Positions 3,853 through 64,000 of a stretch of 64,000 nt of DNA are shown one piece after another (the stretch's first letter is position 1; the number at the start of each line of letters is the position of its first letter). The stretch is from Moniliella sp. 'wahieum'. Its lineage: Eukaryota. The stretch lies in NCBI GenBank assembly GCA_003971905.1, contig RSEE01000011.1:248001-312000 (forward strand), given 5' to 3'. The notes under the pieces were generated by a model. The model had not been told where the DNA came from, did no database searches, and worked only from the letters and a program-made list of their open reading frames with translations. Made by a program: the position numbers and the translations under genes.

Positions 3853-4724
3853 AGGCCACCCAAGCTGGGCCATAGACCAGGTGGCCCTCGAAGTCAAGAA
3901 TGCATTAAGCTTCACGCGCACGCAACTTTCAAGATTACGTTGACACATAGCACGTGACGCGTGACGTTCGCTCGGTCGCTTGAGGTTTTTTTCAACTGAA
4001 CGTTCAACCGTTGAAGGTTCCGGTCACAAGTTTCAAGCTCTTCAAGTTCCGTGGGTCGTCGGAACGGATGCGCTGAAGGCGGAAACGTATGAGTAAGACA
4101 CCGGACCGGAATACGTTTTCCGTGGATGCTTGGGCTCTCAACAAAAGACGGGCCCACCTCTGCTATCTCCGCCAGCGCGCGGACCACAGGCCTTCCCACG
4201 ACGAATATCGCGGATCGGTACAGAAAATGTGACAAAGGTGGCTTTGAAAAGAACCAGTGGGCGGCAAAAGGCCACTCACATCGCCATGAATATTGCAATC
4301 ACATCCTCTTCAGCAACCCACGCCACAGTAGCTATGGTTTGAAACGTTGAATCAACAGTATTAGTTACTAGTCACTAGTCTAGTCAGCAGGATTAAATTT
4401 TAAACAGTCTGGCTACACGGACGTTAGCTTATACCCGGATGTCTCGCGAACGGCCGCCGCCGCGCCGGTTTGCCAGCCCGTCCAAGACGTTGAACTGTAA
4501 AGTTGGTGTCGATAGTGTGAGTGCGTGGAGTGCGTGGCGTCCGTGGTGGCCCGCGCGGGCTCAAGTGCGGATGCAGCTCCGTGGAGGCTTCGGGCCAGGT
4601 CGTGGCCGTATAAAAAGCCACTTCCTCACCACGCAGTCTCCCTTACTATCCAGCACCACCAGCTACCGTCGCAGCAGCAACACCACCGCTTTCGTCTGTC
4701 CTCGCTGCACGCTTCTCTCTCGCC

Positions 4725-5402
4725 ATGTCGACTTCCAGCTTCATCCAGGCCATCACTGCCCGCCGTAGCATCTACGCTCTCGGCAACAAGTCGCCCCTCT
4801 CGAACGAGGCCCTTGTCAAGTACGCTATTTCTTTTTGGTCTTCTAACTGCGTAGCACCATCGCTTACTTTTCCCCTACTCCCACCCTCAGGCTCATCCAG
4901 GAGTCCATCCGCCAGAGCCCGAGCTCGTTCAACAGCCAGTCGTCGCGCGCCATCATCCTCCTTGACGATGCCCACAAGAAGTTTTGGCTTGAGCAGATCA
5001 AGGAGTACGGCAACAAAGACGTGGTCACCTACATGTCTGCACGCCTGCCCCTCTTTGCTGCCGGCAAGGGTACCGTCCTCTTCTTTGAGGATGAGGCCAC
5101 GATCAAGGGCATGCAGGAGCGCAATGCCGCTTTTGCCCCGGCCTTCCCATCCTTCTCGACCCAATCGTCGGGCATGGCCCAGATCAACACATGGACCGCT
5201 CTCGCGACCGAGAAGCTCGGCGGAAACCTGCAGCACATTGGCGCTATTTCCGGGGACCGTATGTCGAGGGCCGAGCAAGGGCATTGAACTTCCCGCTACG
5301 TGGAAGCCCCTGGCTGAGTTGGTCTTTGGCTCGATTGAGAGCCCCGCTGGGGAGAAGACGTTCATCGAGGACGCTGAACGCTTCCGCGTCATCGGCGCCT
5401 AA
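4725..5402 (+). CDS. Nitroreductase family protein (Frm2/Hbn1-like)
   Basis: RRSIYAL, SPSSFNSQSSRA, GTVLFFED, GNLQH, LPATWK..AELVFG. Intron 4820-4890 (GTACGC...CAG); one frameshift near 5270; TATAAAAAG at ~4609. Confidence 0.9.
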   Translation: MSTSSFIQAITARRSIYALGNKSPLSNEALVKYAISFWSSNCVAPSLTFPLLPPSGSSRSPSARARARSTASRRAPSSSLTMPTRSFGLSRSRSTATKTWSPTCLHACPSLLPARVPSSSLRMRPRSRACRSAMPLLPRPSHPSRPNRRAWPRSTHGPLSRPRSSAETCSTLALFPGTVCRGPSKGIELPATWKPLAELVFGSIESPAGEKTFIEDAERFRVIGA

Positions 5403-7366
5403 CGACATCTCATGCAAAATACACCTGGTCGTCAATAATAACAGTATACCTTTGTGGTTGTCTCTTTGCGGAGTGAGTTGGTGATGCATTTGGAGTATCC
5501 AAGTCACTAGTTACTGGATAGAGGGTGGGCTAGGGGTTTATGACCAATGCAGCCTCTTGTATCACTCCGGTTAGTCCGCTCGTTCTTGCACTAGTATTCG
5601 AGCACGTGTGTTTGTCAGGGTAGGTTGTTACATAGAACGATGTTCGTGGCATACTACTACCTCAGATGGCCCAAATGTGTAGGAGCGGACCTTGACCAAG
5701 ACGATCATACCAGCTGCACCAGCCTTCTGCGGGGTAAGACAAAAAGGGGGATATGGTGAATCTAATATGGCCCTGTATGGGCAACTGGCAAACACTTCTC
5801 TGATACCGGCTCTTTCGTCTGGGAACGTTTGAGTAGAGAAGACACAAGAGCAGTATGGTAAGGAGTTAATGACACGTGCACCTGCTGGGACGTGGGGGTG
5901 ATAGCTTGCCTAGGCTGGTGGCATGGCGAAGGTGCACTAGGCCAGTTCATGCCATATGCCGCGCTGCGCACGGCGCGCTCGCCTTTCCTGTCCTCCTTCT
6001 CTGCAGTTGGTGCCCTTCTGTCTCTTCACACCACCGCTCCACTCTTCGCTTCACCTCACTCGTAACCTGTAACTTCGTTCCCGCTCCCCGTGACCGACCG
6101 ACTGACCCCCTCTCCTGTAGACTGCTCTTCGGAACGGCACAACTCAGGCTTCGCCACGTGCCCTAGTAACTAGTAACAAGTAGCTGTTCGGCGAAGGGAA
6201 GAAAGGCTCTACCTCTTCCTTTGAAGCATATGAAGTTTGTAGGAAAATGAACGCTCGTATGCAAAACACCCGGGACTTGGTACCGAGAGAGGGTATGTAG
6301 AGCCCGCTACTGGGGAGAAGTATACTATTTGTGTGGGGCAGGAAAGCTTCAATATGCCGCCTCGATTAATTCGCACCCCCTGTACCCAGAATTCGCAACG
6401 GCGGGCATCGACGCTAGCGCATGCTTGGCATTGCCAAAAACAACCGAGTTTGGGAGGGCATCGGGCGCCGGGTATATTGGTGGTAGCATGCAGCATGGCA
6501 ACAGGTGTAACATAGAGTGTAGCGCGTATAGCATAGACGCGTGGATCTGCACAAGCTCTGTTGAATGAGTCGGAGCCACAGTCAGACTAGTCCTAGTCAC
6601 AACCTGTCACAGCCGTGAGAAGCCAACCCTAAAACATGTGCCGGGACTGTGGGGAGTCAGAATTAGGAAGCCGTGCTTCACTCACCTGCCGGACAGTGAC
6701 CCCGTGCTTGGCGAGGCTACGCAACTACGCATCGTCAGCGGAGTCTACGCCTTGCCCACGCCAAGCACAGGGGCAGCGACCGAAAACGCTCTGCGCGGTT
6801 TCTTCAAGCGCCAAGCGCCAAGCGTCAAGCTTCGCCCTGCTTGCTGCCTAGGGACGCTTGGGAAGCCACGCCACAGTGGACGCACTGGAGAGCCTGTCCC
6901 CACGTCTGCCCCCGTGCACGGTGCATCATCGAGAAGATGCCGATGAGTCCGCACACGTCCCTGAGCGCCTTCTGAACCCTGCTGAACGTTGAACCCCCCT
7001 CTGCCCTGTTGGGCAGAGGGCACGTAGGAACTGCGCCGCGAGGGTGTATTGTATGAAAGGAGCCACCCGCATGAGTACTGTGACGACGTTTGGCTGATGC
7101 CGCGGGGGGGAGGGGTGAGGCCACTGAAGGGAAACTCTTTGACAGCGGCGCGTCCACAGAGGGCCGAGGGCGAGACTAGTGTGGTAGGCGGGGCGCACTG
7201 GCCGCAGTCTGTGCCTGAAGCACCTGACGCAACACCCGAATATGCACCAAACATTAGAGCTCCCCCGTCTTTCTTCCTATACGTCCACAGATCAAGAGGG
7301 AGGGGCAAGGGTGCCAAGGAAGGGCACGCCCAAAATGCCAGTTATATATAAACTGCTTCTCATCCG

Positions 7367-8023: not shown

Positions 8024-8187
8024 ATACCAACGTGATGATGACGTGAAATTGTGAATCGAGTTCGATAATGCTATGCTATATCTTCTGGTCCGCTTTTGCT
8101 GTTGTCGTGGATTGGCAGGAAAGGTATATATGTTGACCTCCCACAGTAACAGGAGGATGAAAACGAGAGACAAAAGACTGTTCGACG

Positions 8188-9576: not shown

Positions 9577-11227
9577 GCCCACAGCGAGGACACAAGCAGG
9601 AGCGAGCTGAGCGGTGAGCCGGGGCCGATGGTGGGAGGGAGGAAGGACACCGGGGTGCGGATGGAGGTGGTGGCGGGGGGCGGAAAGGCGAGCAGAAGGG
9701 CGGGTGGAGCATGTGTGGCGTGGGGCTGCTGGCTGCTGGATCGGCATGCCGGTGTTGGCATGGCATATTCGGATGCGGCGTCGGTGACTAGCAGGCTGGG
9801 TGCTGGGGGCTACTGAGCAAGTACTAGGTACTGAGACCGAGCACGCGCTGGCAGCAGCAGAGCGTGGGCGCCGGAACTTGGAGCTTGACACATGACATGT
9901 GACGTGTGGCACAGCAGCGCAGCTGGGCTGGAGAGTCGGCGCACGGGGGCAGTGCGGCCGCTGGAGCGCCGCGCCGAAACGTGTCGATCAGCTACCATAT
10001 GCCATCGATCATCGATCAGTGCAACCCTTTGTAACTGGCGTTCTGGCCCCAGGAGAGTGCGGCGCAGTGCGGCGCTGCGCTGCCCCCCACCCAACGGCAT
10101 GGGCCATGGCTGCCATGCTGCATGCCCTGGCAGCGCACGCCGCACGCAACGCAGCAGCAGCACTCACTAACGTGCAACCCCCGCGCCGCAGAGCGATTTG
10201 AAATTGATCGATGGCCGATGATCATCGATCAGCGCCCAGGCTGAGCTCGTCGCCGTCTTATGCACGGGGGGCCACTGATCGTACTGATCGATGATCCGCC
10301 ATTTGCAAGTGCTGCAGCCAGCGGCTGGCCTAGCAACGCAAGCAAGCCTGCGCGCGAGGGCGAAGCCAGTGGCTAGCAAACTGGAAAGGCCATCGGTACC
10401 ACCGCCCATCCCGTGACCATACATCAGGCCAGCCTCCAGAAGGCCTAAGGGACAGCGGGACAATCGACCATCGATTGAATATTGACCATCCAATCACGGA
10501 TTGTATGGACTACACTGGGGTATGCAGCCATGTACTTGTTGTCGATGTTATCGCTCTTGGAAGATGCCAAAGAGCATCGATCAAATCTGCTCCTGTAGGA
10601 CACGAGTAAGATCCCACAATGTGTGCCCCCCACTATACTGCATCCATACCATTGACAGTAACCACAATCCCATACGCGCCATTGCGGTCCCCACTGAAAC
10701 CGGGAGGCAATGTTGCCTGCTTCATGCTACCCCATCCGCCACCCGCGGCGCAAGCAGCAAGTAGCCACTGGGGGCCCGCCATGCATCTCCCGCCTATGAC
10801 TTCTTGGGCTCATACTACGAACTGTGTGTGGATTCTCAGCATCAGCAGCGTTGTTGCGCTTCCTCTTCTTCCTGCCGTTTTGTTTATGACCATCGATCGA
10901 GATTGTCGGATGAGAGCCCACAGCTAGTTCATTCTGCATCTTTTGCGCGATCCCAGCCGGGCCGTTGTCTCCCACGTATCCCAATGTCGATGCTCCCCAA
11001 CCCATGGCGCATACCGCCCCGATAACCAGCATAACCCTGCTGATGAATCCACTGGTTGCGGAGGTGGGGAAGTACAACACAAGCAGCAACTGAGATCTAC
11101 AATGACGGGCGATACCGGATAATAGTCTTCTCTGCTTACCATACTTTCACTGCCAACTTCCCTACAACCATTTAGCGCCGTTTTTAGAAACACATCATTA
11201 GGTAGGAGTCATAGATCCACGATCCCA

Positions 11228-13027: not shown

Positions 13028-15298
13028 TGTCGGGAAGGGAGTAGTAAACGTCTAGGAACGGGGCGAGGGTGTGTGTGGGGAGGTGGGGAGGGGGGAGCGG
13101 TGTTGCGATTCGGACGCCGGGGGGGGGGGGGGGGGGGGCTAGAAGTACGCCCTCGTTGGGCGCTGGAGAGATGGTGACTGCAACTGCGGGAGGGGAGGGG
13201 GCAACAGTAGTAGCGGGAGCGAGCCGAAACACTTGCAGCCGAAGTGGGTGGCAGTGAAGGAGGAAGTGGCGGTGGGTGGCGGTGGCGATGGGGATGCCAG
13301 TGGTGGTAGACGGGAAAGAAAGAGGCAGGAGGGGTCGAGATAAGTAGGCCAAGCGTCAAAATAGGGCGTTGCCGCCCAAGCTGCGTCGAGCAGCCCAGCT
13401 GCCCGAGGCTCGAGTGCCTGACGGTGCAGTGCTAGGACCACGGCTGCGCACGGCGCCTGTGTGTGGATACCGACTGTCTGCCGTACGTACCCCATCGATC
13501 GATCGGGTGACGGGGTGACCAATCGGGGCTTGTCCCCGACATCACACGGGCATCACACCCGTGCCATCAATCGGGCTCTCGTGCCCCCCGCGTGCCCCAC
13601 AGATCGCGGCGCCCCCCCGATGTGCCCCAGCTGCTTGGCCAGTGCGCTCGCTTCCAGGCGCTGGCGGCCCTTGCCAAGCTCACACATGCCTCACGCCTAC
13701 TAGGGAAGCTAGGCACTAGGGAGGAGCTGGCGCTTGACAAGTACAGGCTTCTGATAGACGGAGTACTGAGGGTGGTCGGTGTGAAATGTTGTGCCTCTCG
13801 AGGCCCGAGGACTATACAGAGGGGAAACCCACACAGTAAAACACGCTGCGTACCGCGTAACGTGTTACGCTCTTGGGAGCGAGCGGTGGCAGTGACAGCT
13901 GCTGCCCCCGTGAAACTTGGGCAAAAGGCCATCTTGGCCCCGCAGGGTCCAGCGCACTGGTACTGAACTCGGGACTCGACTCAGTATGCTCTCCAGCATA
14001 CCCACACTCGATGCCCGTTATCACATGTGCACGCATCAGCCTAACGCCACCCGGAGGCGACTATAGTGGCTAGTGACTATAACGTGACCAGTAGTCACAG
14101 TTACTAGTAACTCAATAGCCAAGTGACTAGTAACTGGTGGCATACTAGTGACACTATCACCTCATCAATCACGTCGATACATCACCTTGCACCTTCCTTC
14201 GCTTCATTTGAAGTGTCGGTTCAGCGTGTTCAACGCCAGCACGTACTCTCAGGCAGCAGTGGCGCAGCGCCATCCAATGGAACTTCATGGCCGTCAGCCG
14301 GGCAATAAGGAGGCACATAGATGTTGATGGACGCGCGTTCCATGCAGCTTGAAGCTTGAAGCTTGAAGTAAACGGACTAGGTACTGACCAGCGCTCAGGC
14401 TGAGCGCTGACTATAGGCGTAGCTCTCCAAACAGCGTGTGCGCGGCAGGCCCCTATGGAGACACATCTGGGCCATGCATTACGCATCACATGTATGTCAC
14501 ACGGCATCCTCCGACCTTTCAACAGCATTTGACCGGCATCTCCCGTGTGCGCGCCGTCTAGGATGCTTTGTGCTACACACCTTCCGTGAGCGCGAGCGTA
14601 GTTACCTCGGATTCTGAAGTCTTCAGTACCAGTGCTTCGTACTGATTAGTGTACTACTTTTACTCATAACCCCGTCCAAACCGATACAGCTTTTACCAGA
14701 GAATGTGGCCGGTAGCTGGGCAAAAACGACGGAGCTGCGCGCCCTCAACCGAACAAAAGTCATCGAAACCATCGAGCATAGACCATCGATCATCCCGCAG
14801 TCGTCCTCGCAGGGCCCCATCGCCGATGATCTCGATGATCGATTTGGTCGATCTCCACGAGACCAGCCCGCAGAGCGCCTGTCAAAAGCTGCGTCCTATG
14901 ATCGCGTATGCTTTTTGGCCAGCGCTAACTTTGTTCAAGCTACTGAGTGACGACCCGGCTCCGGAGGGAATGACCAGCAGCGTCACCTGTATCGTCTCAT
15001 GATGCGTCGTGCGGGCCATCATGTACATCAGGAAACAAGCGACAGGCAGCGCACCTGCGCCGCTGGCTATCCCAGGCTACCGGTTGTGGGCGATGGAATA
15101 TTGTGTGCTCGATCGCGATCGATCGATTCCAAGTCACTCGCATTATCAAACGAAGCGGGGAGTAAGACCAAGCAGCAGCGGGCAAGCGGGATGCAATTTG
15201 CAAGGTGCCTGCAGGAGAAATTTCATATTTCACTGGTTAGGTTTAGTCCAGTCATTTAATTCGGCGCAATATTTGCCGCAGTATATTGCCGAACCCAC

Positions 15299-15309
15299 AA
15301 ACCCTAGGG
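15299..15309 (+). promoter_or_regulatory. AAACCCTAGGG telo-box-like motif upstream of RPL33
   Basis: About 80 nt upstream of the ATG; the same core also lies in the RPL6/MRT4 promoter. Confidence 0.4.
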
Positions 15310-15389
15310 CCGCGGTCGCTCCCTAGCGTCGATGGCTGGACGGCCGTCGTGCCCTCGGGACAGCTGTTCACTAACCACCAAACTCCTAA

Positions 15390-24944: not shown

Positions 24945-25446
24945 GGCAGCAGTGGCAGAAGAAACACGGTCAAGCTGGGCTGCTGGATGGGTGGCGGGGT
25001 TGAAAGGAGCGGGGCGGGTAGCTGAGATGAGATCGATGAGCCCTGGCAGGCCAGCCATGGAAACACAGCCGCAACAGGAACACCCAGAAAAGGCACACTG
25101 CCCCCCTACCCCAGCGATCCGCTCGCCAGCCTTCTGTGAGGCCGTGAAATTGGAGTTGGGGCACGGGCAGTGCCCCATCTCCGACGCGTTGTTACGTCAC
25201 ATGTCACATGATCAATTGCCCCCCCACTGGTCCCGACGATGCTGCGGACGCGTCAGACGTCATCGCGTCATCACCGGCATCACTCTCTGCCGCCACCGGG
25301 AACATTCTCGGGACGCGTAACGCGTAACGCGCAATCGACAAGATCTTTTGCTTTAAGTTTTGCACGTGCCAATTCAGCATCGAATCCTACCGATCTGCGT
25401 TCAAGTTGAACGTTCAATGTACACTGAACGTTCAACGTACGTAGGC

Positions 25447-25552
25447 GACTGGGGAGAACGGTGGCTAAGGTGGCGACGGAAACGGTGGCTAAGGCCTAAG
25501 GTGGCGACGGGGGAACCCGCTGACCGGCCGTAGGCCCGGTGGTCTCCTCGTT
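25447..25552. repeat. Second copy of the 1421-1498 repeat, with internal duplication
   Basis: ACGGTGGCTAAGG x2 and TAAGGTGGCGACGG x2, followed by GGCCCGGTGGTCTCCTCGTT. Confidence 0.75.
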
Positions 25553-26839
25553 TTTTACGGAGTGAGATTTTAAAATTCAAATCTCCAAAGCTTAAAGGCC
25601 TAATGTCCACGACCTATACGATCCGCTGCAGTGCATTTTTCCTCGTGTGCGTTAGCCTGAGGCATGTGAAGCTGAGGCAGACGGATGGGTACCAAAGCTT
25701 AACAATCAGCTCTACGATATACTCAGTATTGAGACTCAGTTGAGTACTCAGTCTGAGTACCAATCGCACTGTAGTCTGGTACGCGAGACTGCTCTAAGGC
25801 TTATCGATTATCTCGGTACGCGGCAGTACGATATATGACCGTGACCGGCGTGACCGCGTGACCGGTGACCCCAGTTTTTTTTTTCATTGCCACCGTCAGC
25901 ATCTCCAGCGTGTTCGCCCACGATTGCGCAACCAAGTACCCTCCAATATCCAATCCTCTTCAAGCTTCAAGTTAAGCTTTACGGTTACCGGGGTACGCGT
26001 TACGTGGCACCTGCAGTAAAACGCTATCATACGTACACTTTCATCCGCGGGTGTGGAAAACTTTTATCCGGGTGGCCTTAGGACATATATATGGGACACA
26101 GCAGGGCAGGGCCAGCGACACGTACGCAGGGCTTCGCATATAGGCTCAGAACTGAGTCAGGCTCAGCGGGACTGTGCTCAGCGCTGACTTTAACTCACAG
26201 CTCTTCCGTACTTACTCTAACATTGCCATCGGCTGGTGGCAAAAGCAGCTCCAGAGCAGATAGGCGCCGATGGGGGTGCGTTGAATGCATGAGAATACTG
26301 AGCTTGAAGCTTAACCGCGTAACGCGTAACGTACGTAACCGGGTAAGCGGTGGCCACAGTCGCCTCCCTCGCAGATCTCAGCCATCATGCATCACCATGT
26401 AACACAGTGCACTGAAACGTTGCAATTTGAAGAGGCTTACGCTGCAAGGGACTTGCGGCAAAAAGCGGCAACTCCAACGACGCTGGACCAACAAGCTTCA
26501 AGCTCCAAGCAGCTTGAATTGAAGCTTCAAGCTTCACGTCAATCGATCATCGATAACCGCTAAGCGCTAAGCGCTAAAAGGAAGCTTGAAGCGATAATCG
26601 ATGATCGATGAAGGAACAGCCTGTTGCAGCAGCTGGCACATCCCATCCGCCCTCCCATGCTCCTGTGTCCTAATGGCCCGTCCAGCACCACCACACTGCC
26701 CCATTTCCCCATTCCCCATTTCCTCAGCACCAGCAGCTTGGGCTCTGTGGGAAGCCATTCTTCATCTCCCCCACAGCGCCCCTGCCACCACCTCTTCTTC
26801 TCTTCCCTCCGATCATCTCCTTGGCCTGCCCCAGCCCCC

Positions 26840-30635: not shown

Positions 30636-30688
30636 TCTTCGTCTTCGTCTTCGTCTTCGTCTTCGTCTTCGTCTTCGTCTTCGTCTTC
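30636..30688. repeat. (GTCTTC)n microsatellite
   Basis: 8 perfect GTCTTC units plus a partial unit. Confidence 0.97.
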
Positions 30689-31446
30689 CATCAGCGTATG
30701 CAGCGTTCAACGTTCATCATCAGTTCTAATTCAAGTTAAAGTCATAATGTTTTCTACCGTTATGTACTACCTCCACCCCCGCACGCCACAAGTCCCATAA
30801 TGACTGCGGAGAAGGCAACAGTGCGATGGGTGCTGTGGATGTGTCTATCTATATAGTAGCAGCTAGGTTTTCAAGCGAGCCATCGTTCTCGTGTGCGGGG
30901 TAGAGTTGGAGCCTGGGCTGTGTTCGAAGCATACGACCAGTCTGGCTCTCGCAAACATCCTTCTCGCCGCCAGCATCTGTGGTGCAGATCGATGCATGGT
31001 ACACCCGCACAACGGATAATGGCCGAGGGCCTTGGAGCTTGAAGCTTGACTGGCTTTGCCTGTCATGCACACGTTTAAGTCCAAGCCGCCCCGCGTAAGC
31101 AATACATCACAGGATCACCTCAGACCTGCATGTCACAGCGGGGTGGCCGCGGCGGAATGCAGGATGCGACGCGTCGGAGCAGCACAGGGCGAGTGCGTGC
31201 GGTGCGCCTCAACGCTGAGCGCTGATGCATGATGCATGATGGGGGGATGCGCGGACGCGGGATGGGCGATGCAGGATGCAGGATGGGACGCGGGACGGGA
31301 CAGGACGCGAGGCGAGGCGAGGCGCGTCGCGTGCAGCGGAACGCCCAGCGGACACCCGCTCTGCACAGACAGCAGACGCAGCAGACGCAGCAGACACCGC
31401 CGCACCGCAGACGCACCCCCACCACCCACCCCTGGCGCCTGCCGCA

Positions 31447-38691: not shown

Positions 38692-40934
38692 ACCGCAAAC
38701 CACTGAGCGGTTCGACTAGCCACCGAACATCTCGGAATGCTCAATGAACATGAACGTGAACGTGAACATGTAGGTGTCTAGCTCCCGCTGTCCATGTTTT
38801 GCTGCGATCACATCGTTCAAGCAAATGACACTAGCTTGTGGTTCCCCCCACCAGCATGTCAAAACACCCTACCCTGCACATACCTATACTGTTTTCTCAC
38901 CGCAATTCCATGTGTTTCGACGTCGGTCGGATGGTGTCAAGGTTTTCTTCCTATAGGATCACGCCGACCACAGTGGGGTATGTGTACGGAGGAGACTATA
39001 TGTGTATTATGGAGATCGAGAGAGGGCGATATAAAGGCTCGGACGAAAGCAAATCGAACTTCAACCGAAATGGTTGCCCATAGACGGTCGATAAGAAACT
39101 GGGTGACCAACAACACAAGAGTGAAAAAGCTACTGTGACCTGTGTTCTGTTGGGACAGCCAGAGAGAGCTTGGAAATCGAGACGAAGGTTGTCTGTGCTG
39201 GGTTAATTGCGTTAACTGGGGAGCATGCATAATGGCAAAGCATGTTTACACAACACATAGTGAAGACAAAGTGAATATAATAGACAAAATGGCCTGCTAT
39301 AGGGAGGAAAGCGTGTAGGCCAAGGCTAGACGTCACACTGAGGCTATAGTAAAGCAAAAACAAACGAAAAGGAAGCTGGAAAACCAAGCCCACACAGCCT
39401 TCAGTCAGGAACACGGACCAGCAAGAGGGATTATCGATTATCGATTAATGTTCTATGAACAGGCTCTCAGCACCCACAGTCAGGAACGGGAAAAGCATGA
39501 GCCGGTGAATCTCGGACCGAGAATGGAACGCATAAATCCGCGGACGGTCAACTTAGAGCCCACGCACGCTTATATGAATACGCGCGAAAAGGTTCAGTAT
39601 AAAAAGGATCGTTAGGAGACATGTGAAGAGATCGAGATACATATATTGAAGCAATACTAGTAGGAAGGACCAATAAAAGGCAATTCGCGGGCCATCTCGG
39701 TCTTAAAAAAACAGACTCGATCCAAGTGATACAGATCGAAGGGAGAGACTTGCTCCGTTTATTAAACACAAAACAGAACTATTTACATCTGATTGTAGAA
39801 GGTTTCGTGCCACGCGGGGGAAACGATCGGGAGAAGAATGGGAAACGAAGTAGCCCTTGCTCTTCTTTAGGGCTCTGTCTGTTCCCGCCTGTTAAGCTGT
39901 GTGGTAACGCTGCGAGGAACAGAGTAACTTCGGAGCTCCTGGACCCCTCCAACTGGTCTAACGACCTACGTACTCGGCTCTTCCTACCTCGGAGGGTCTG
40001 AGCTGCGGCCTCTGCACGCAGGCAGCCACCCAAACTAGAGGGTCTCTCCCTCGCCTCTACGCCCGCGCGGTTCAACCAGGATCTGAAGCAGGACGTAACG
40101 TACGAGACACCAATTGGCCTGTCTAAGGGTTATATATATATACCTGTAAACTACAGGAGGGGTCCATGACACTTGACGTGGACAGAGAGGTCAGTATAAG
40201 TACGATATACTTGGCACAAATACTTGGTATTCAGTGCGGGTGAACTCAATATTTAGCACGCCCTCACAGTCCTCCAGGCCTCACGGGCCTGTGCATGGAC
40301 ACCAGGACTCTCCTTCTTCCATTATATCTACGACCTTGTGTGCTTCAAGCCCATTGCACTCTTCAGCTCTAGCCTCACACGTTTCATCATAAACTCTGCG
40401 TCTCGCCCGCACTGGGGCAGGCATTACAAACTGGCACGTACTATAGACACACGTGCTGCCCATCACACAGGTACAAAAAACTGTATAGTACAGACGTTTT
40501 ATGATCACGAAACCCTACTCCGTTAGTTCTACTATACGACTATAGCGCTGCGCAGAACCTCTTCCTAGCATTGTTGTCGGAGTACCGCGAGAGTGTATAC
40601 TCAAAAGAGTCCTGATCGCACTGTATTACTGATCGCCTAACTGCCACCCATACGTAAACCGTAACGTTGACCATTTCCTATAGTCTCTTCAATAGAGCTA
40701 CTATGTAGTGGCTCCTAGCTCTCCTAGGAGGCCCTAAGGCCTGTGATGGTCCCGCAGTGCCGGTGTATAGAGTGCGCAGCCTGTGTATAGTAAAAGGCAC
40801 ACACAGGCCTCTCTCACCGGGAGACTGAGTACTATAACCTGTAGACTGAGTATACTGATGTACTCACAGTGAAGCGCCTCCAATTATAAGAGTAAGAAAA
40901 AGGGGGGGTCTCGATTATAGAATAGTAGAATAGA

Positions 40935-41006: not shown

Positions 41007-41668
41007 GTATCGTGAGCGAGAGGGCTCTCCGCCACTTGTGATTCTCTCCGCCCCTTGTGATTCTCGCTCGGACAAATGTCGGACTCCTATGTTGCAGCAC
41101 TTTTCCATAAGGGCAGCGACCTGTATCTAGGCGCCTGATGTCCGAGACGTCCGACCGAGTGTAGAGTTTGTGTATATATTGTTTTGAGTACTGCCACAGA
41201 GTATATTCCTGCTTTGTGCCGATGACATCATGCATCGTGGTCGGTCATTCGATGACTACACTGTACGTGTGTCCATGCGATAATCTTTTGGGCATACGCG
41301 TTTTATATATGCGTTTCCAGCCGATCTACCGGGCCGATCGACCCCTTCACCATCGCGACAATCACATCGATTCTGCTTGCAGATGATCACTAGCTTCACT
41401 AGTCACTAGTCACCTGTCATTATCGTCCGTAGTCCCTAGCTCCTAGTTCCTAGAGTCATTACTGGTCAGTGGGTGGAGCTGCCCGTTAAAACGTGTGCGA
41501 CCTCAAGGTTTCCACTATCGTGGCGAGGAAAAGACTTCCCTCCCAGTTGTCTGTCACATCACACAGCCACTCGGCCACCTTGCCCATTTCAATTGGCTTG
41601 CTTCAACTTCCCTTCCTCTCTCTTTCTTCTCTTCGTCGCACCTCCCTCGGCCTACTGCAACTTCCATC

Positions 41669-44568: not shown

Positions 44569-45462
44569 GGCAGGGCAAGAAGGAAAGTGGGAAATGGTGG
44601 TGTACAACAGCCTTTATCAGTCAAATGCCGCGTTGGCCGTCAAGACACGTTGAACCGATGCGGTGCAACAATCGTGGTGGATGCAGATGAGTGAAGAAGT
44701 GAAATTGAAGGGGCGCCTTGGTGGACCGACCTCGTTTGGGTAAACTTGGTTGAGCGCGTTAAGCAATGAGCAATGCGGGATGGGACTTTGAGGGGTCGGT
44801 TTGGTTGTTGGGGGAGCGCAGCGATGGTGCTGGTGGTGGAAAGGAGGAGGGCGGGGAAGCCGCTTGCTCTTGGACTATATCCTAGCCCGTCCCAAATGAT
44901 CATGCCCTTGCCAACCCTAGGCCCACAAAGGACATCAAGCCAACTCTAGCACGTGCGCAGCGTCGATTTTTGGGACAGTCACCTAGTTACTCGAGCTATG
45001 TCGACAAGCCAGTACCAGTACTCCTAGTACTCAATGGGCACGCTGGGCTGTTGGCCTTTCATCGTGTTTCGTCCAGTAGTGGCCCACTCTCAGGTTCTCA
45101 GCCACCTCATCCCTTGAGGCCTCATGGACTCATGGCCGCAAGGGCCCATGGGCTCATGGCCTGACGGTGTTACGCCTTATGTATCGTATCACCTGTGCCA
45201 GCACCATCTACCACTTCTCCGGCCAGACAGGGGAACTACGTGCATCGAACCTGTGTAGTGGAAATGGGCGCTGAAACGCCACACCACTTGCCATTGAAAA
45301 GATCAGTCAAAGCTTGGGGGCAACTGGCTGCATTCGGTTTCACCGGCTTCACCGGCTTCACCGGCTCCATAGCATTCGCACGGGGAGTACAAGCAGACGA
45401 AGGACGGCCAAAGAGTGCGACCAGATTAATGGCTGGTGGTCCATCCAACTAACTTCGACCAA

Positions 45463-48199: not shown

Positions 48200-49271
48200 G
48201 ATGAAAAAGCGGGGTGAGAAGAGGGTGGGAGAAGAGAGGTGTGGTGGATCGATAGACAAAAAGGTGAGAGGAAAGGAGGGCTGGCTTTTATACCCAGGCT
48301 GCTTGCTGTTGCTCGCTGGGGGACGATTCGGCTTGTGTCTCGTGTCTTCCTACCACGACGTCAGCGCGTCAGCGCAGCAGCCTCGATAAGATGGGCAGCG
48401 TGGCATAAGCCAGGGTCGCCGAATATCTGCCTCCCCGAGCGAATAAGGACAGGCTGCTGCGCTGATGCGCTGATGGATGACGCGTGATGACGAATGAGGC
48501 TGGGCGCTGGCTGGCAGCATGCGACGCCACCACGTGTGACGCATGATGCATGGTGCATGATGATCGATGACGATGACTGGATGGCTCTGGCCATCTGTAG
48601 GATCTCAGATCCAAACGTCTAAACTCTGAGATTCGCTCAGCGGCTCACGCGCGCGCTCAACGCCGCTTTCAGCTGGCCTCCGTCGACGTCGCTGACGGTA
48701 CGGTGCTGTGTGACGCGTGACGCATGATGCATGATGCATGATGCATGGTGCCATGCACCATGCGTCACGTGTCACGTGCTGCATGTCACCAGTCTGGCCT
48801 ACTGCCCTGCTGCGGGGGGCGGAGCTTGGCTGCAGCGGGCGAGGAGCACGGCGGGTGGGTTCGCCCGGGTGTGCCCAGGCTGTCGCTGTCCCCCTCGCCG
48901 CAGGCCACCCTAAGGCCGAATGTGGACATGTTTTGAAATAGAAACTTACACCTCCAACTTCAAACCCAGCCCGCGGCCGGCACCGCGGCTGTGTTCCCCC
49001 GTGCACCGACGCGGCTGATTTTTTTCACCGCCGGTTTCGCTACATTCGGCCCGCCCGCGGCACTTGCTGACCCTCCCTCTTCTGTGGTCGACATCGCGTT
49101 GCCGCTTGCGCCAGGCTGAGCCCCAGGGCCTCAGCGCGGCCGAGCGCTGACTCTGAAATTTGGCGCCGCCAGCGCGATGGCCAGCGTATGGGATGCGGGC
49201 ACTTTGAAACCAATCTGCTCCGGCGTAATGAAACCAAGGTGCATGAGTGTCTCAGCGGAATGGCATGGGTG

Positions 49272-49301
49272 ACGTGTCACGCTTAGCTAAGCGTGACACG
49301 T
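49272..49301. repeat. Perfect 30-bp palindrome
   Basis: ACGTGTCACGCTTAG|CTAAGCGTGACACGT. Confidence 0.97.
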
Positions 49302-51240
49302 AGCTGGTAGATTTAGATCTTAGATCTTAGAGCTCTCTGAGATCTGACAGCAATTTAAATATTTAAATGCAGATTCACCGGTCGCCATCACCCATCACCG
49401 ATTGTCGATCATCGATCACGCATTGCCCGCCACTTGCATGTCACATGTCACAGCGCCCGGGATATTGACGTCATTGTTAATCACGGACGGTATCGCGAGG
49501 CGTCTGTAGTTGGGCAGACAACGGTGGGTGGGATGGATACCTTGGCCATTGTCCGGTTGGGTCTTTTCGTCGCGCTTGGTATATGGGGAGTGGGGCTAGA
49601 ATGTGCTAGATGGAGGACCGCGAGGGGAGTGTATGCAGTACTGCCTCATCAGTATGCAGTACCATCGCATCTCTTCATGATCGTCCACCAGCCCTCTGTG
49701 GGGTTTGGGCGCCAACACAGTCAGCACACTACTTCGTTTGCCGATCGTCGATCCATCGATCATCAGTGCCAAGTGACAGGTTACTAGCTTTACTAGTTAC
49801 TAGTTACTGGCCTCTGTGGCATCCGGTCCACAACCTCTCACCAAACGTGTGTCTTCACAATAACAACTGCTATATGTATATGCCACACGTCACGTCAAAC
49901 TACCCCTGCACCATGGGAGCTCCACGTTTTTTGTGAGGCTCAACAGCAGAGTGGATGGCTGCTTCATCTGTGGAAGACGAGTCGATGAGGTTGATGTCGA
50001 TGGACGTGTCGATGAGACCTTATTCAACGTTGAAACAGGTAAAATCGCGTGTTCCCAAGACGATACCAAACGCAGACCCATAGAAATAGTTGTTGCCACC
50101 GCAACTCCAGTGTGCTTCCACCTAGTAGGGCGTCATCTCGCTCTCAGTTTCACACTCACGCCTCAATAGCTCGATCTCTAGTTATATCAAGGCTTGCACT
50201 GAGAAAGAGGGGAGAAAAGGAGGATGGAGAGGTGGAAGGCTGACGTAGTGGACACCGGACATATCTGTGAAGTACACTGTCTCGCGGCGTGTGTCCACAT
50301 GGTGTAGGTTTCGACTCAAAAGAAGAAACAAAAGTGCAATGCTCACTTTTTGATGCCTACGGGGTGTGAGTGAGAAGGGACAGTGACATCGACTGTTATT
50401 GGAGCAAGCAGAATGCGAAACGAACGCTAACTCAAGGCCAATTCGTCCTCTCTGATCCGCCGGCCATGAGGACGCGTATAGGTACTTGATGTCACCACGA
50501 TGGCCAACAAGATCTTTGAGCATTGAAAAGCCTTACTGAACAATCTCATTGGTGATGGCTCATTTTGCCGTGCATGTAGACCACACTCATAATATTCGTA
50601 TCCACTTGCACTACTTGTACCCCGCGCTTTTTGGGGGCGACTGGCAGGAGCCAGAGAAGAGCCCCGAGACCTGCGCTGTGACAACACCGACCTCTTCAGT
50701 TGGATGGAATGAGAAGCAAGCAGAATATACACACTTGAGTATAAGTGCAGCGTTGCTTTGTCCCAGCCTCAAGCGCTGTACAAATGATATGAGAGTACAA
50801 CTAAGTGGGCGGGCACACTGATGGGGGCCTCACTCATGGAGGCGCTAATAGGAAAAGGAAGGACTATACGTCCCCGCCTTCCATACCTTCTAGAAAATGG
50901 ATTCTGTTCCCGAAGAATGCGGTTTGGAGAAGGTGTCTGCGTCTGATTATATGTAGAGAGTAAGATCAAGTGTAAGTGTGGAGCTAACAAGACCCTCATC
51001 GACCAGTCGATCCCCCTGTCCCCATCTGCAGTTGATGATGTGGATATATATATTCCACCCTGAGGAGTACATATACTAGGTTGCTATCTTCTGGGGGTTT
51101 TCAGATGCCTCTCGTTCTCATCGCCCTTTAGATATACCAAGTAGTTGTGTTTGTAGGAGGATCATTTCTTTGGATCTAGGAACATGCTCCCACAACGAAG
51201 CAGTGACGTATTTATCAACGCAGAGAAGAGCATCAGCGCT

Positions 51241-54676: not shown

Positions 54677-55348
54677 TGGCAGAACGGTGGTGCAGCGTGT
54701 CCCTGCCTCCTCAATCCTTCATTTTTTTCTCAGCCAGGGGTCAGCCGCCTGTCTGCGGGTCGGCCAAGCTCATTGAATCATGGTTGAGAATACGTTGAAT
54801 GGTGATCATCGCTTTATCATTAACGCCGGCTCATTCCAGGCTGTGGGGATGGGTACATGGGTGAGGCAGGATACATGGAATGGCCGATGTGAGCTGCATA
54901 AAAGCGATGGACAGCGCTTGCAACGATAGAATGGTATATCTAGGCCCAGTGTGGAGAAGAGTACCGAATGTTTTAGGCGCCAGCAGCCACGGATCCATGT
55001 GAAAATGTGCCAGCACACACTGCCCTCATGCTCGCGAGATGACTTGGTCCGTGCCCCAGCCAGTGAGCTCGACAATGCCGTGGCGCGTGACGACGCGTGA
55101 TTCATAAATGGAGGGCGCAACAAGGGGCTTCCTTCAAGCTTCAAGCTTTCTTCGGGGCTCAGCGCACCACAGGCCTAATGGCCTCCAAGTCACTAATCAG
55201 CGTTCGGCACAGCCGCCAGCGCGCCAGCCCGCAACCCCTGGCCGCGCATGCACAGGTTTCAATCTCAATTCCCGCTGCAGCACCGCTTCTTTCTCCCCAC
55301 CACCACCACCTTCCCTCCACACTAGGTGTTGTGCCGACTGTACCCGCC

Positions 55349-55944: not shown

Positions 55945-58944
55945 GCCCCTCTCCCCTCCCCCTGTTGTGTGCAGCAACAGCGCCCTTCCTTGTTTTGCTA
56001 GGACAGTGCATCTGTTTCCCGCCTGCCAAGGATCTTTACTTGTAGAGCATCATAATTTTTGGTATTGCGCCAATTGTGGCATGAACCTACATTCAACCCT
56101 GGGTATTCATGCACCGGAGACACCCATGTGTAGGTAGGACAGGGTCTACACCGTCGACCAACCTTGTGTGTATGCGGACGAACAGCCCTGTGGGAGCCCC
56201 GATCTGAGAGTGGGCTGCATCATTCTCATCGTCTCCATCTTTTCATATCCAGCCATTTCCACAAACAATAAGGCGTACTCATTGCCAGGCTTGCCGCTTC
56301 CGACTTTCCCTCTCTCCGTCTTCGAGCCGGGACATGGATGTCACCGCGTGCCTCCTGTGTCCTGCTTCACACTCATATACGTATCCTCGGTTGGGGCGAT
56401 GCGGCATCGCTATAGAGACAGCAATCAATTCCCGCCGCTTTTTCAATCGCCGAACCCGTTATGGACGTTATCCATTGAAAACGTCGATGGCGCTCTCTTT
56501 TACCCCGCTGATGAGGGGGGTCAGTTTAGCAGAAGGTACAATCCCGGGAGCGGCATCGCATCCCGAGGTATTCCACCCCAATGGTGCCGAACTGTCTCGC
56601 CTGATTCATCGCTACATCTTCTCTGTGGCGAAACGGGCTACCCACTGTGACGGGGATATTAAGTTGTTGCACCACCCCAGGCTCGGCTAGTGGTCCTCGC
56701 CTCTGAGAAGCACATGATGGATTTTTGACATCGGTAGGCTCAGGCACATCGGTTCCTATGGCTTCTACCCTCGAGCTCCGATCCTGAAACTTCGTGCTTC
56801 CCTCTCGTACGGAGAAGGCTAACGCCTTCCTTCCTCGGCGTCCCGCTTGTCTGTCTCCTCCCAAGGCCAGCTACGGCGAGCTTCTACTAGTGGGTGCAGG
56901 CATGCATACGCGTGCCGACTGGTGCCACATCGGTTCCGTAGGTGGTTCTCCCAAGCAGCATACCCTCGCATGGTGGAGGTGGACCCAATGACCGCCTTCA
57001 TGCTTGTGATGCGGAAACTTCTCAAACTGGCAGGGAGCAGTGGCTCCGGTGCATAACCATTCCTTCTGCGCCTTCTTCCGCCCGAAGTTGACACCACTGA
57101 CAATGGCCTCGGAACTCATCATGGTGGCCTCCCATTACCTGGAATTGCAGGGCCTCGGACAATCACATTGCCCCGGCCCGCACAACCCCCAAGGCAACGA
57201 CCCAGCTGGGGAAATGGTGAAGTATAGATTAAGCCCCCTTCCTACTAATCGAGTGGTGCTCCCCGTCGGCTACGCTCGTCTTGCGCTACCGCCACGTATG
57301 GACCGCTGTACTGGATGCTGTCCTCCACGTTCACAATGTATCCTTCTTCCTTGCCGACGGAAACTAAGTACGCGCGCCTACCTTCTTTGATCGTTTCGTG
57401 CGCCACCCGTCTGACGCTCTGCTCAACAAAGTCATCCGCATATAAGAGAACCCCGGCCCCAGGCATTGCCACTGACCCGTCCGAATCCCTGACTGTCTAT
57501 CTCTATCGTGCGCTATTGAATACATGACAGAGCCGTCGCGATTAGCTCACTTCGACTCCTCCGTCCAAGGAGTGTAGTAACATGTAATTTCCCACCGGGA
57601 TATGAGCCCACTGGCAGCGCCTCCTTTGTCATGCGGCAAATCCAATCGGTACTTCTCTGCTCGTTGGACCGCCTCCTTGTAGATTGAACGGCACCCTGGT
57701 ACATCTCCATCAATAACCCTTCCATCGATAACGCTTGCTCGATGCTTGGGGCAACATCGTAGACGAGGTCGCCCACACATGAAAGCTGGCTGCGCCCTTT
57801 ACCCGAGTACCTTGATCCTCCGGCTCAAGAGGAATACTAGCTTTCCGGGAGGAGGTACTGCTTCTGCCAAGCTCAATATTTGCTACAAGTGGTCGCCACC
57901 CGCGCGGTGGGCGCACTCGTCTTCGTCAGCCTCTTGTACTCTCGTTCGCCCTTCCGCCCTCTCTTTTCCCACTCACCACCCACCTCTCGCATGGCTCCTT
58001 TGATGAGACCTGGAGTCCTGATGGTCCTCGAGGGTGATGCAATCGCACTGGTGGTGGTGGTGGTCTAAGCCAACCAGCAACGCCTAGTACAGAGGAACAT
58101 CAAGCAACGAGTCGCCACCAGGGGCTAAAAGCTGCGGAACAAGGAAAAACAGGAGAGAAAAACAACGGAATTCCCAGGCCTGAGGAGGAACTGAAGAGAC
58201 ATTGGCCAAAGCACGAGCCACCCGATGGCTCAACGCTCAACCAACCTCAACATCGTTCGCTCATACGATCGTCCGACGTCTGCTTTGCTCCGTACGTCTT
58301 TGTGATGAACAACGTTGATGCATTGCTGCGATGCCCCGAAAGCTAATCAATCGCTAATCAACTAATCGCCGGGCTGAACATACTGAGCAAGACGATTGCA
58401 ACATTGAACACCGGTGTCGAACGCGCGGGCGCCCCGGTGCCCAGGCCGGCTCAAGCGCTCAGGCGTTCGGGGCCTGGCCGCCACAGGCACAGGGTCACTA
58501 TAGGCCGCAGGCCCACACTCAGTACTCACTGGATGAGGCCGATGAGGCGCATGCAGATTGCAGAGCATCAGCGGTGCCCTCAGCAGGACCAGCAGCCGGG
58601 CAGTCTCCTTCCGCCCTGAAGGCTAAGCGCTGACGCGCTGACAGCGCTGATGCGCTGAGCCGACGCGTGACGGCAGAAGTACGAAGAACAGCGCATCACT
58701 GGCGCCATGCCCACCTCGAGCTGTCGCACTGGCTGCGGTTGCTGCAGGGTTCCGTCGGCGGTGCACGCCGGGGCGGAGTGGGGCGGGGCGCATGCAGGGT
58801 GGGACACTGGCGCCACGCGGGCTGCAGCTGCTCCACCCCCTTGCATGCAGGCCCCGTTGCTCAGTCCAACTGCCACGCCTTCGGCTGGCCACGAGCACCA
58901 CCACTCTTCCTCCCTCCACATCCGAGTTGGTGCCGTCGACGAGC

Positions 58945-61322: not shown

Positions 61323-64000
61323 GGGTGTGAGGCAAGAAGTGGCTTTCTTCTCCGTACCCCCTCCTCATGATACCGTATTTTGAATGTCGGGGGTACCCCC
61401 CCTTCCCCTCTATGGTTTGTGGGTACCGTCGTTCACGTGGGACACGTCTTCCTGCATTGCATTTTTTGGTATGACGATACTTTTCTGATTCAATATAGAT
61501 ACTTACGTTGTAGCCCCTCTCCCCTCCCACAAAACGCATGCCCGACAAAAAGCGACTCGTACCCGTCAAAAAATAACTAGCTGACGGGAACATGAACGTC
61601 TTCGGAAAGGACGGGGGAGCTGTACTGTGACTACCCCCGTGGGGGGTCATATCATATAGATAGCGGGATGATCGATGAAAAGACGGATGACGCGGGTCGA
61701 AGGCAAGCTAGACCACACACTTCACAAGCTTCACATTCACACACCTCACATATTTAAGGGCAAACTCTTCAGCGACAAGCATTTTTGCTCCCGAACAGAC
61801 TGAGGCCGGGGGCTCAGTACTCCGTCTCCGTGACCCCCACAGGAGATCCTAACCCCCCACTAGAACCCCGCGGCCTTGGCCCTCTTTATCACTGTTGGTA
61901 AGGGGTAGACGGAACTTTGCCTTGATGTGAACGGTTATGCCGCGTATTCGTCGTATCCATGTCAGATGTGGCCAGTAACTGAAGCCGCATAGCTTCCTCT
62001 TCTCTCTTGAACCTTTTTACTGAGGCAGGTCCGTACGTGTTATGGAAGCGGTCCCTAATGCCTCTTCTCGGCATTGGTGTTTTTTGCCCTAGGACACACA
62101 CTACTTCAATAGTGCAAAACACGCATGTAGCGCGTTGGGACCTGACTTGTTGTATTAAGAGCCTCGTAGCATAACAAGTCCGGGCGCTGGGTGCAGCTGG
62201 CACCTGTGCTTTTTTCCACGACTGCACAGTGCGTTTGCCAACGTGCGTGTCCAATAAAGAGGAGAGAACAACTGGAGGATCGGTTCTTTTACTGCAGCAT
62301 ATCATCATCATGGGGGAAGCACCCTCCTCTCAGTGTGCATATATAAACGTACGACTTTTAACCAAAAGTAGAAACAATAATACTAGGTTGGGCTTGCCTA
62401 TACTATGCGCATCACACACCTTCTCACATACTCGCCCTTCATTACAAACTAGTTCCCCATCATGTTTTTGACACCCTCTTTTGGCTCTGTTGCGGAGACG
62501 AAAGAGAGTATGTAGTAAACATCTATAGAATCCATCTCTTATGCGGTATATACAGTGAGAGCCCCAAGTTGTGACCACACTGTACTGATGGAAGACGTAT
62601 AGGTGCATTCACATGACAATGCATCTTTTCCATCATGTGTCCTATATCTCTTCGTCCCGGAGGTGGACCTTGCCCCCCTTTTGGCAGAGTCTGTCACAGG
62701 CCTAGCTAGCGATGCTGGCGATGATGGATGGAGATGGCATTCGAGAGCTAAGGAGAGCTAGAGCTATGGGCCTTATTGATAGGCTCCTGGCCTGGAGGCC
62801 AATGGAAACCCGTGGAAGGTCCGGAACTCACTGCCCCGGTGCACTGTGTGCATCGGGCCACGTGTCACTGAAGGCCGATGGGCTCTAGACCACTGGTGGT
62901 CAACAGAGTCGGAGCTGCACTAAGGCAAAAGACCTTCGGCTTCACATCCTGTGGCGGGTCATCGGGGATATAAAACACAGACGTAACGGCGGTGAGGGAG
63001 AAGCGGTCCTTATACTTTTACGGTGTTTTTGTGCCCCAAATCGCAGCTGCATGTGATTCCCTTGGAAAAAGGAATCGGACTCACAGAAACAAGGGTAATC
63101 CTCTCGAAGACCGCGGCAGAACAAAAAAGGCGTCCATACGCAACTGTGGCCTCCCCACGCAACTGATCTCCACGCAGCTGCTCTCTCTGAGGGAATAACC
63201 TTCTGATCGCTCGCGGCTCGCTCGCCTAGCTGCTCCCCTAAAAAGTGATACCTGTGTTGCCGCGACAGAGACACTTCATTTTTGCGCATCCGTGTGAAGG
63301 AGAAAAAGACAAGTGTGCGAGACGGAGATTCAGCGTCTGGAGCGGCCCCACATACAGGAAAAAGTGAGAGGGACTCTCGTCGACATGGATACTGCTAAAT
63401 TCGCCGTGTCGAAAAGAGACTGTGATATGCTCCTCTCCACCTACGGACCTTCTCTCCCAATATGGCTATTACTGTATAGCAAGCGGCAACCAGGAACTAT
63501 CCTTCCGCCGCCGTGTCATTCTCATGATTGAGTATCGTTTTTATCTGCCTCCCCTATATCTCCATCATGACCGGTGACCGATGACCGTTGTCACCACGGC
63601 GGAGTTACATATATCAGGGTTGGGCACGTCAACACTGCCTCAACGGCTGAGCGCTGAGCCTCAGCGGGGAGAGTTTTTATATGGTTTCCACTCTCTATTC
63701 CCTCTGTGTATATGTTGATCCATGATCGGATACTTGGTACCCGGTACGACTGTGTGGGAGTCGACAACCCTCTGTACAGTAGTAACAATAACGTGAGACA
63801 CGTATAGCTCTCTCTCCGCTCGATGATGTTATTACGCGCGTGATATGATGAAGTGGTCGCGCATGCGTCAGATTCATCCGTAGTAATTAATAATTGAAGA
63901 CGTTGCTACCGTTGATCTCTATCAATTGTGATGCCAGTGATTAGTGATTTGGCAGTTATCCAAGAGTAGATAAGATTGTGTGCACATCATAGGTGCATGA

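Follow-up and report, generated by a model that had tools for sequence, protein, structure and literature searches.

Inverted flank bases in seven-base promoter repeats of a Moniliella contig suggest excision scars of a cut-and-paste transposon

What writes the same short motif, a unit of seven bases, over and over into the intergenic DNA of a fungus? The question is raised by a 64-kb stretch of Moniliella sp. 'wahieum' (NCBI GenBank assembly GCA_003971905.1, contig RSEE01000011.1, positions 248,001 to 312,000 of the forward strand; hereafter the window, on which all results given here rest and whose own numbering is used throughout). A sequence-only reading of this DNA had described intergenic tracts in which TNA (T, any base, A) alternates with a 4-bp palindrome, and had offered two kinds of explanation: a recurring mutational process, such as staggered cutting with fill-in or hairpin repair by a symmetric dimeric nuclease, by a transposase of the PIF/Harbinger type or by the meiotic break machinery, or else binding-site arrays of a dimeric protein that recognises TNA-N4-TNA. 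The present analysis confirms the observation and supports recurring cutting and repair by a symmetric transposase, while the family that had been proposed is left unsupported. The repeats are probably, if by no means certainly, repair traces of a cut-and-paste DNA transposon that had a 7-bp target centred on TNA, was excised, and is not itself in the window.

The first matter is whether the pattern is real. All 13 examples that had been cited are present, either exactly where they had been placed or within 1-2 bases, and a peak at period 7 stands out clearly from dinucleotide-preserving shuffles (30 for the period spectrum, 100 for the test of the cores): there are 40 perfect tandem repeats of at least 2 copies at period 7 vs 3.5 +/- 1.6 in shuffles. 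The corresponding counts are 8 vs 0.9 at period 8 and 63 vs 13.4 at period 6. When direct repeats of at least 5 nt are counted in the 25.9 kb of intergenic DNA, lag 7 leads with 120, followed by lag 6 with 51 and lag 8 with 40; no lag-7 peak was found in genic DNA, which holds 49 such repeats at lag 7. An ordinary microsatellite would follow no rule on the sequence of its unit. Here, 25 of the 40 perfect period-7 units are rotations of an odd palindrome (with T-N-A at the centre in 24 of the 25), and non-palindromic cores occur at chance. This last point comes from the test of the cores, in which TNA, a palindromic 4-mer and a second TNA with the same N were found 56 times vs 2.6 in shuffles; with a complementary second N the count is 14 vs 2.2, and with any other N it is 10 vs 3.7. 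Non-palindromic 4-bp cores are not enriched in any of these classes (42 vs 39.5 with the same N, 26 vs 39.4 with a complementary N and 40 vs 57.3 with another N). The enrichment is also confined to a core length of four, since palindromic cores of length 2 occur 10 times vs 8.7, cores of length 6 occur 3 times vs 0.55, and the form with no core at all (TNATNA) is not enriched (52 vs 41.3 +/- 6). At least 12 different cores had been claimed, and in fact all 16 four-base palindromes serve as core among the 80 10-mers.

What decides which of the 16 palindromes is used at a given site? The answer lies in the adjacent sequence. Among the 38 single 10-mers whose two TNA share the same N, 31 have a palindrome half that is an inverted copy of the 2 bases adjacent to the 10-mer (on the left only in 14, on the right only in 10, on both sides in 7 and on neither in 7), where chance would give such mirroring in 1 of 16 cases per side. 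The minimal unit is thus a 12-mer, xyTNA-y'x'-xyTNA or its reverse complement (primes denote complements), in which five bases form a direct repeat and an inverted copy of the first two lies in between. It was found 65 times on the two strands vs 0.4 in shuffles, and its perfect loci use 15 of the 16 palindromes as core. Spacers other than two inverted bases are much rarer: 8 vs 5.7 for none (the plain 5-bp tandem duplication xyTNAxyTNA, which is not enriched), 6 vs 1.75 for one, 3 vs 0.1 for three and 1 vs 0 for four. When the 12 positions were relaxed one by one, the base that the rule demands was kept in 65 of 67-85 cases, and where T and A are fixed, departures are most often transitions (C for T, G for A), as would be expected from decay by later point mutation. 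The unit originally described, TNA plus a 4-bp palindrome, is the commonest product and not the whole rule; variants of period 8 and period 9, described below, share its logic.

Mirroring of the flank bears directly on two of the possible explanations, neither of which copies neighbouring bases in inverted form; binding-site arrays and plain slippage are for this reason excluded as the origin of the pattern. Selected arrays of sites for a dimeric protein, the alternative offered by the sequence-only reading, would suit the promoter-side location described below and the recurrence of one 10-bp palindrome, but selection cannot explain why all 16 cores are used and why the local flank dictates the core in 31 of 38 cases. 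In addition, the longer variants keep the mirroring and break the spacing, and the exceptions at the fixed T and A look like neutral decay. We regard this explanation, which the mirroring rule already contradicts, as extremely unlikely. The recurring palindrome is TGA-ACGT-TCA, which occurs four times (at 3997, 24772, 25407 and 25425, with a near copy at 6983); it fits a product with complementary N, and its recurrence could instead reflect a real binding site.

Replication slippage, or template switching at short quasi-palindromes, would expand 7-mers that arose by chance into arrays. Arrays of 2-4 copies do exist, two related stretches of the GPD1 promoter differ by whole 7-bp units, and slippage may well add copies once two are present. 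As an origin it is already contradicted, because it creates no inverted pair of bases, needs no fixed T and A and would not favour period 7, nor would it leave the non-palindromic cores at chance. Moreover, the majority of events are lone 12-mers, of 1.7 copies each (33 were counted as exclusively single), and mixed chains carry different cores around one TNA. The clearest of these chains lies at 31214-31241, where a single TGA has a GCGC core to its left and a TGCA array to its right; each palindrome mirrors its own flank, which fits repeated hits and not slippage. Slippage is very unlikely to be the source of the pattern, and it may act as a secondary amplifier.

In the period-7 arrays at 6805-6830 and 31268-31285 the units resemble rule units with one changed letter in each copy (TTG or GGA in place of TNA), so that either these arrays expanded after mutation or the requirement for T and A is not absolute. 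A period-8 array at 45121-45159 (consensus unit CTCATGGG, 4.9 copies, 77% matches) adjoins a scar and breaks the rule of a 7-mer plus inverted bases.

The events are also unevenly placed. On a rough gene map of our own (built from Pfam matches and a codon-usage score trained on them, which makes the division into 5' and 3' sides approximate), 39 loci follow the rule perfectly, and 37 of them are outside gene spans. Only 1 falls in 30.9 kb of exon and 1 in the 7.2 kb classed as intron or as weakly coding; divergent intergenic DNA is the most densely marked, with 21 loci in 11.2 kb, followed by tandem intergenic DNA with 12 in 10.6 kb, while convergent intergenic DNA has 1 in 3.5 kb and the remaining 3 are in the last 0.6 kb, at the edge of the window. 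This split agrees with the earlier remarks that the tracts sit mostly 5' of genes and had not been noticed in coding exons, and a promoter-side location fits a transposon that prefers open promoter DNA. The density varies from place to place, with 11 loci in the 1.55 kb that separates the dynamin gene from the one after it and none in the 1.8 kb between the first two genes. An artefact of sequencing, amplification or assembly, in favour of which nothing was found, would hardly be confined to non-coding DNA or show mutational decay, and it deserves next to no credence.

A second set of products is new here: the entire 7-mer abTNAcd, in which TNA occupies the exact centre, may itself be present in two copies, which either abut or are separated by 1 or 2 extra bases. 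It stands head to tail with no extra base at four sites (29965, 49386-49399, 58228-58241 and 63936-63949), with one extra base at four (25258-25272, 25849, 48359 and 48461, besides one AT-rich palindrome) and with two extra bases at six (10274-10289, 14825-14840, 25840, 45347, 58532-58547 and 61720-61735), the last class having a net gain of nine. Shuffle means for these classes of full duplication are 0.00-0.30. Wherever two bases are inserted, in six sites of six, they repeat in inverted form either the first two or the last two bases of the 7-mer, although chance alone would bring this about in only some 1 in 8 per site. Non-palindromic units make up 15 of the perfect period-7 repeats, and of these a phase-weighted 3.5 are centred on TNA where about 0.9 would be expected. 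The same 7-mer logic builds arrays of longer period: at 25840-25870 (period 8 to 9, a TNA-centred 7-mer plus 1-2 inverted bases), at 45335-45366 (period 9, 3.6 copies, a TNA-centred 7-mer plus the two inverted bases of its own end), at 48453-48475 and at 58627-58658 (period 8, fitting a 7-mer minus 1 plus two inverted bases). Since these follow the same construction, one logic covers periods 7, 8 and 9.

To bring the products together, the left and right copies were treated as two ends, either trimmed (negative) or extended by inverted bases (positive), and all combinations were counted. In the resulting matrix the anti-diagonal with a net gain of seven dominates: 35 cases of -2/+2 and 30 of +2/-2 (plus strand, arrays included). 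The main product thus retains five of the seven target bases on one side and all seven on the other. Small counts appear at +8 and +9, and a product of +11, in which both inverted dinucleotides would be kept, was found 0 times, as were products of +10. The form with a complementary central base accounts for about 8 sites. As is expected of excision footprints that pass through hairpins on the flanking DNA, two target copies flank the junction and the junction bases are an inverted copy of the flank, i.e. P-nucleotides (palindromic nucleotides).

What the window shows is the sequence rules, how often they occur relative to shuffles, that the 7-mer is duplicated whole and that the events are biased in location; from this we infer a transposon, hairpins and joining by overlap, which would work together as follows. 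Insertion, mostly into promoter-side intergenic DNA, would duplicate a 7-bp target abTNAcd in which T at -1 and A at +1 are preferred. On excision, each flank would be left as a covalently closed even hairpin, as is the case with RAG/Transib and MULE transposases. Opening of the hairpins 2 nt from the tip would give self-complementary 4-nt overhangs (cd d'c' on the left, b'a' ab on the right), both of the same polarity, and these could be laid over each other like cohesive ends and ligated without fill-in. If the overlap were 4 nt, the net gain would be seven and the two strands would read abTNA-b'a'-abTNAcd and abTNAcd-d'c'-TNAcd; each strand of this heteroduplex matches one of the main rule's two mirror forms, and the two would be parted at the next replication. 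An overlap of 3 nt would give +8 (a 7-mer minus 1, two inverted bases and a 7-mer, as at 58629), and an overlap of 2 nt would give +9 (a 7-mer, two inverted bases and a 7-mer). Opening at the tip would yield the plain 7+7 duplication, and opening 4-5 nt from the tip with full overlap would yield the form with a complementary central base. Opening at 2 or at 3 nt gives an identical sequence, because T and A pair. A dominant net gain of seven and the lack of +10 and +11 products are what joining of two 4-nt overhangs by overlap would lead one to expect.

The same scheme could account for arrays. Each scar would recreate TNA targets, and repeated hits could build arrays of 2-4 copies and chains of mixed palindromes, possibly with some help from slippage. 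About 60-70 of the 1295 intergenic TNA sites are marked, and 10 of 70 chains consist of two units; by rough estimate rather than computed test, these numbers look compatible with repeated independent hits. Much of the mechanism suggested by the sequence-only reading survives in this scheme: the recurring mutational process in place of slippage or selection, the hairpin or staggered-cut repair (supported by the duplicated target and the inverted flank bases) and the symmetric dimeric transposase (supported by the two-fold symmetry of the target, with T at -1 and A at +1 of the 7-bp duplication). PIF/Harbinger, its candidate family, does not. The meiotic-break machinery would not by itself give a 7-bp duplication. 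Spo11, topoisomerase II, tyrosine recombinases, retroviral-type integration and template switching by a polymerase alone were dropped, as none would both duplicate 7 bp around a central TNA and add inverted bases of the flank.

Several observations weigh against the transposon. No element with inverted ends and a TNA-centred duplication of 7, 5 or 3 bp was found in the 64-kb window (the only matches were derived from the arrays), and Pfam found no transposase domain in the 262 open reading frames of at least 100 amino acids in the window. Intergenic DNA holds about 1.4 perfect loci per kb, besides many that have decayed, a density far higher than is normally credited to footprints. For end joining, the range of products is unusually narrow, the counts of the +8 and +9 products are small, and one of the plain 7+7 duplications, that at 29965, lies in DNA scored as exon and may be due to chance. 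There is also an asymmetry in composition. A symmetric model predicts equal composition on the mirrored and non-mirrored sides, and the 26 isolated events, once oriented alike, differ: the base after TNA on the non-mirrored side (+2) is C in 14 of 26 (background 0.26, p = 0.003), whereas the equivalent base on the mirrored side is found in 5 of 26 (Fisher p = 0.02), and on the mirrored side the outer base (-3) is G in 14 of 26 (p = 0.007). In 8 of the 26, the two bases before TNA on the mirrored side are GA. The symmetric model does not account for this asymmetry as a whole. The survival of one or the other overhang may depend on its sequence, or the two ends of the element may be handled differently.

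Such an asymmetry would suit an asymmetric target, and the same type of scar might come from an element whose target duplication is the 5-bp xyTNA and whose excision leaves exactly 2 P-nucleotides at one flank only. The commonest product, after all, is exactly five duplicated and two inverted bases. This version is nonetheless improbable, given that the plain 5-bp duplication stays at chance, that no P-nucleotides from the TNA side were seen beyond cases coinciding with the rule, and that the 14 sites at which all seven bases are duplicated with 0-2 extra bases would be left unexplained. A TNA at one end of the duplication would also lack the two-fold symmetry that is usual for transposases.

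Alternatively, there might be no mobile element, and a host-encoded, possibly domesticated, hairpin-forming nuclease or transposase could cut promoter TNA with a 7-nt stagger, repair of the cut leaving the scar. The lack of an element in the window and the extreme uniformity and promoter-bound position of the products speak for this, although a single window cannot prove that an element is missing from the genome. If nothing were inserted, it would be hard to see why the target should be there in two full copies at the hairpin stage, whereas insertion and then excision readily produce both the plain duplication and the forms with P-nucleotides. We consider the host enzyme unlikely. Much the same degree of doubt applies to the broader idea that the scars, far from being debris of a selfish element, are made by a domesticated hairpin-forming transposase or nuclease, kept by the host, that repeatedly opens promoter TNA, or else that they come from a resident element whose hit-and-run cycles are a main source of new promoter sequence in this lineage; were either true, one enzyme system would have written a large share of the short intergenic repeats of period 7, 8 and 9.

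If the scars are indeed those of an excised transposon, how do they compare with the known systems? The hAT, Transib and MULE transposases and RAG are known to produce hairpins on the flanking DNA that are opened by host enzymes and sealed by end joining, with footprints left behind (PMC5499845). The coding joints of V(D)J recombination (made by RAG) and Transib are a close parallel: as here, the junction contains inverted bases of the flank end, and the 4-bp core forms an even palindrome centred exactly at that end, as even flank hairpins would have it. There are differences as well. Transib and RAG duplications are 5 bp, whereas here the whole 7-mer is duplicated and xyTNAxyTNA is at chance; the junctions in the window are also far more uniform than V(D)J joints, and untemplated bases were not seen. 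Artemis typically opens hairpins at an offset of 2 nt.

The hAT elements share some features with the scars. They favour promoter or otherwise open DNA, and in their footprints (Ac/Ds, Tam3, Hermes), as here, the target duplication is kept and small inverted changes lie at the centre. Their duplication is 8 bp, with the two-fold symmetric consensus nTnnnnAn, and their odd hairpins lead to complementing of the base next to the element. The window instead has 7-bp duplications whose third and fifth positions are T and A, in contrast to the 8-bp nTnnnnAn. The hAT junction signature is also not enriched: among non-palindromic TNA-centred 7+7 pairs that share their five inner bases, both junction bases are complemented in 1, one is complemented in 3 and neither is changed in 4. 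The hAT family was rejected on both counts.

The duplications of MULE elements are longer, at 8-10 bp. The MULE transposase of Muta1 is reported to form hairpins on the flanking DNA, which host enzymes open, and more than 90% of Muta1 excisions in yeast are reported as precise (PMC5499845), which sets Muta1 apart from the scars. For PIF/Harbinger the likeness is in the target, which is written TNA or TWA, but the duplication here is 7 bp and not 3, and TNATNA is not enriched. Excision of mPing is described as mostly precise in an abstract (PMC4561436). DNA transposons of Cryptococcus have duplications of 2, 3, 4-8 and 8 bp, none of them characterised as 7 bp. Basidiomycete transposons with 7-bp duplications have been listed, namely hAT7 (Puccinia, Melampsora) and Kyakuja of the KDZ group (Laccaria), the latter having the termini 5'-CA..TG-3' and no inverted repeats, and neither is given from Ustilaginomycotina in the section of the survey used (PMC12730594). 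What can be matched to Kyakuja here is the length of the duplication; for hAT7, the type of footprint expected of a hAT is not seen here. Among open PubMed Central papers and bioRxiv, no paper describing such scars or such a target was found.

Should the transposon reading hold, dozens of events within 26 kb of intergenic DNA would document closely, and from nature, the way in which a basidiomycete opens hairpin-capped breaks and joins them, and the product spectrum would be sharp enough to reveal the offset of hairpin opening (2 nt) as well as the overlap at which ends are joined (4, 3 or 2 nt). It would also mean that transposon traffic, and not slippage, makes short tandem repeats and palindromes in promoters. 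On this reading, one would expect Ustilaginomycotina to contain an element, active now or until recently, whose 7-bp target is centred on TNA.

The other scars are best followed along the window. Upstream of the nitroreductase gene there are a 7-mer in two copies (3953-3966) and the first full 10-bp palindrome, TNA-core-TN'A (3997-4006), followed by chained scars with CTAG and AATT cores (4365-4404) and by a single 12-mer with a CTAG core (6165-6176). Three 12-mers with a TCGA core start at 10007, 10220 and 10285 (region 10007-10296), and a single one with an ATAT core is at 10474-10485. Two CTAG scars at 14099-14133 differ in their central N, which is complementary at 14101 and unrelated at 14124. 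Between the WOPR and RPL35A genes lie a 3.3-copy array with an AGCT core (14346-14368) and a single GCGC scar (14399-14410).

The next cluster begins with a CATG 12-mer at 25197, in the same region (25197-25272) as one of the +8 sites. It continues with a CGCG array (25316-25329), two full 10-bp palindromes (25407 and 25425), a GGCC scar (25490, closing the region 25316-25501), a palindrome with complementary N (25741), a TCGA scar (25801) and an AGCT array (25958-25971). The densest stretch of all, at 26305-26611, is directly upstream of a long plus-strand gene and carries AGCT, CGCG, TGCA, AGCT, TCGA, GCGC and TCGA scars or arrays in a 7-bp register. Farther on are an ACGT scar (30705), an AGCT scar (31038), a 2.7-copy TCGA array (39429-39447) and a 2.6-copy CTAG array upstream of RTA1 (41396-41412).

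The two related stretches of the GPD1 promoter (48532-48562 and 48713-48743), which differ by whole 7-bp units, are 94% alike in register, and a TCGA scar, a CGCG scar and a 3.7-copy TGCA array lie within 48532-48778. The two +8 scars at 48359 and 48461 (region 48359-48475) form a 23-nt inverted repeat. There are two such inverted repeats in this promoter, both of the 23-24 nt class and made of scar units: 48361-48383 with 48451-48473 (96% complementary, 67 nt apart) and 48710-48733 with 48752-48775 (92%, 18 nt apart). These could be larger inverted duplications derived from hairpins.

Beyond GPD1, a GATC array, a GATC scar, a TCGA scar and a CATG array are found within 49313-49452, and a 2.7-copy CTAG array is at 49790-49808. 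An AGCT array marks the 5' edge of BAP31 (55132-55145); single scars with GTAC and TCGA cores start at 58517 and 61667, and a CCGG scar, a GCGC array and a TTAA scar lie within 63568-63949.

As to the genes themselves, Pfam matches to stop-to-stop open reading frames identified nitroreductase, Gti1/Pac2 (WOPR), RPL35Ae, Ssu72, RPL6, RPLP0, dynamin, Nipped-B/SCC2, RTA1, oxysterol-binding protein, MED7, GPD1, secretory lipase, AHAS small subunit and BAP31. Most of the genes that had been named earlier are backed by these matches; for Aur1/Ipt1 and a Pbp1-like gene no confirmation was obtained. Among named relatives, the RTA1 protein is closest to one from Tilletiaria anomala (54% identity), which marks the fungus as related to the smuts (Ustilaginomycotina). 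Metagenome contigs searched with the GPD1 exon gave one 1.8-kb locus, mostly coding and free of scars, which is uninformative.

A few further repeats in the window were noted in passing. The stretches 824-1156 and 3275-3600, about 2.45 kb apart in DNA rich in open reading frames, are 83% alike and are probably tandem paralogous genes without a Pfam match; when they were aligned (about 800-1200 against 3270-3600), the similarity was in coding DNA only and no informative 7-bp insertion or deletion was found. The window, which is intron-rich fungal DNA of 56.5% G+C overall, includes at the start of the SCC2 region a very G+C-rich stretch (31200-32130, about 70-79% whichever codon position is taken), which contains several short repeats and has several open frames on the two strands. 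A run of 20 G at 13119-13138 lies inside the upstream-most open reading frame stretch assigned to the WOPR (Gti1/Pac2) gene. Finally, a perfect hexanucleotide array of TCTTCG, with 8.8 copies, occupies 30636-30688, directly downstream of the long plus-strand gene.

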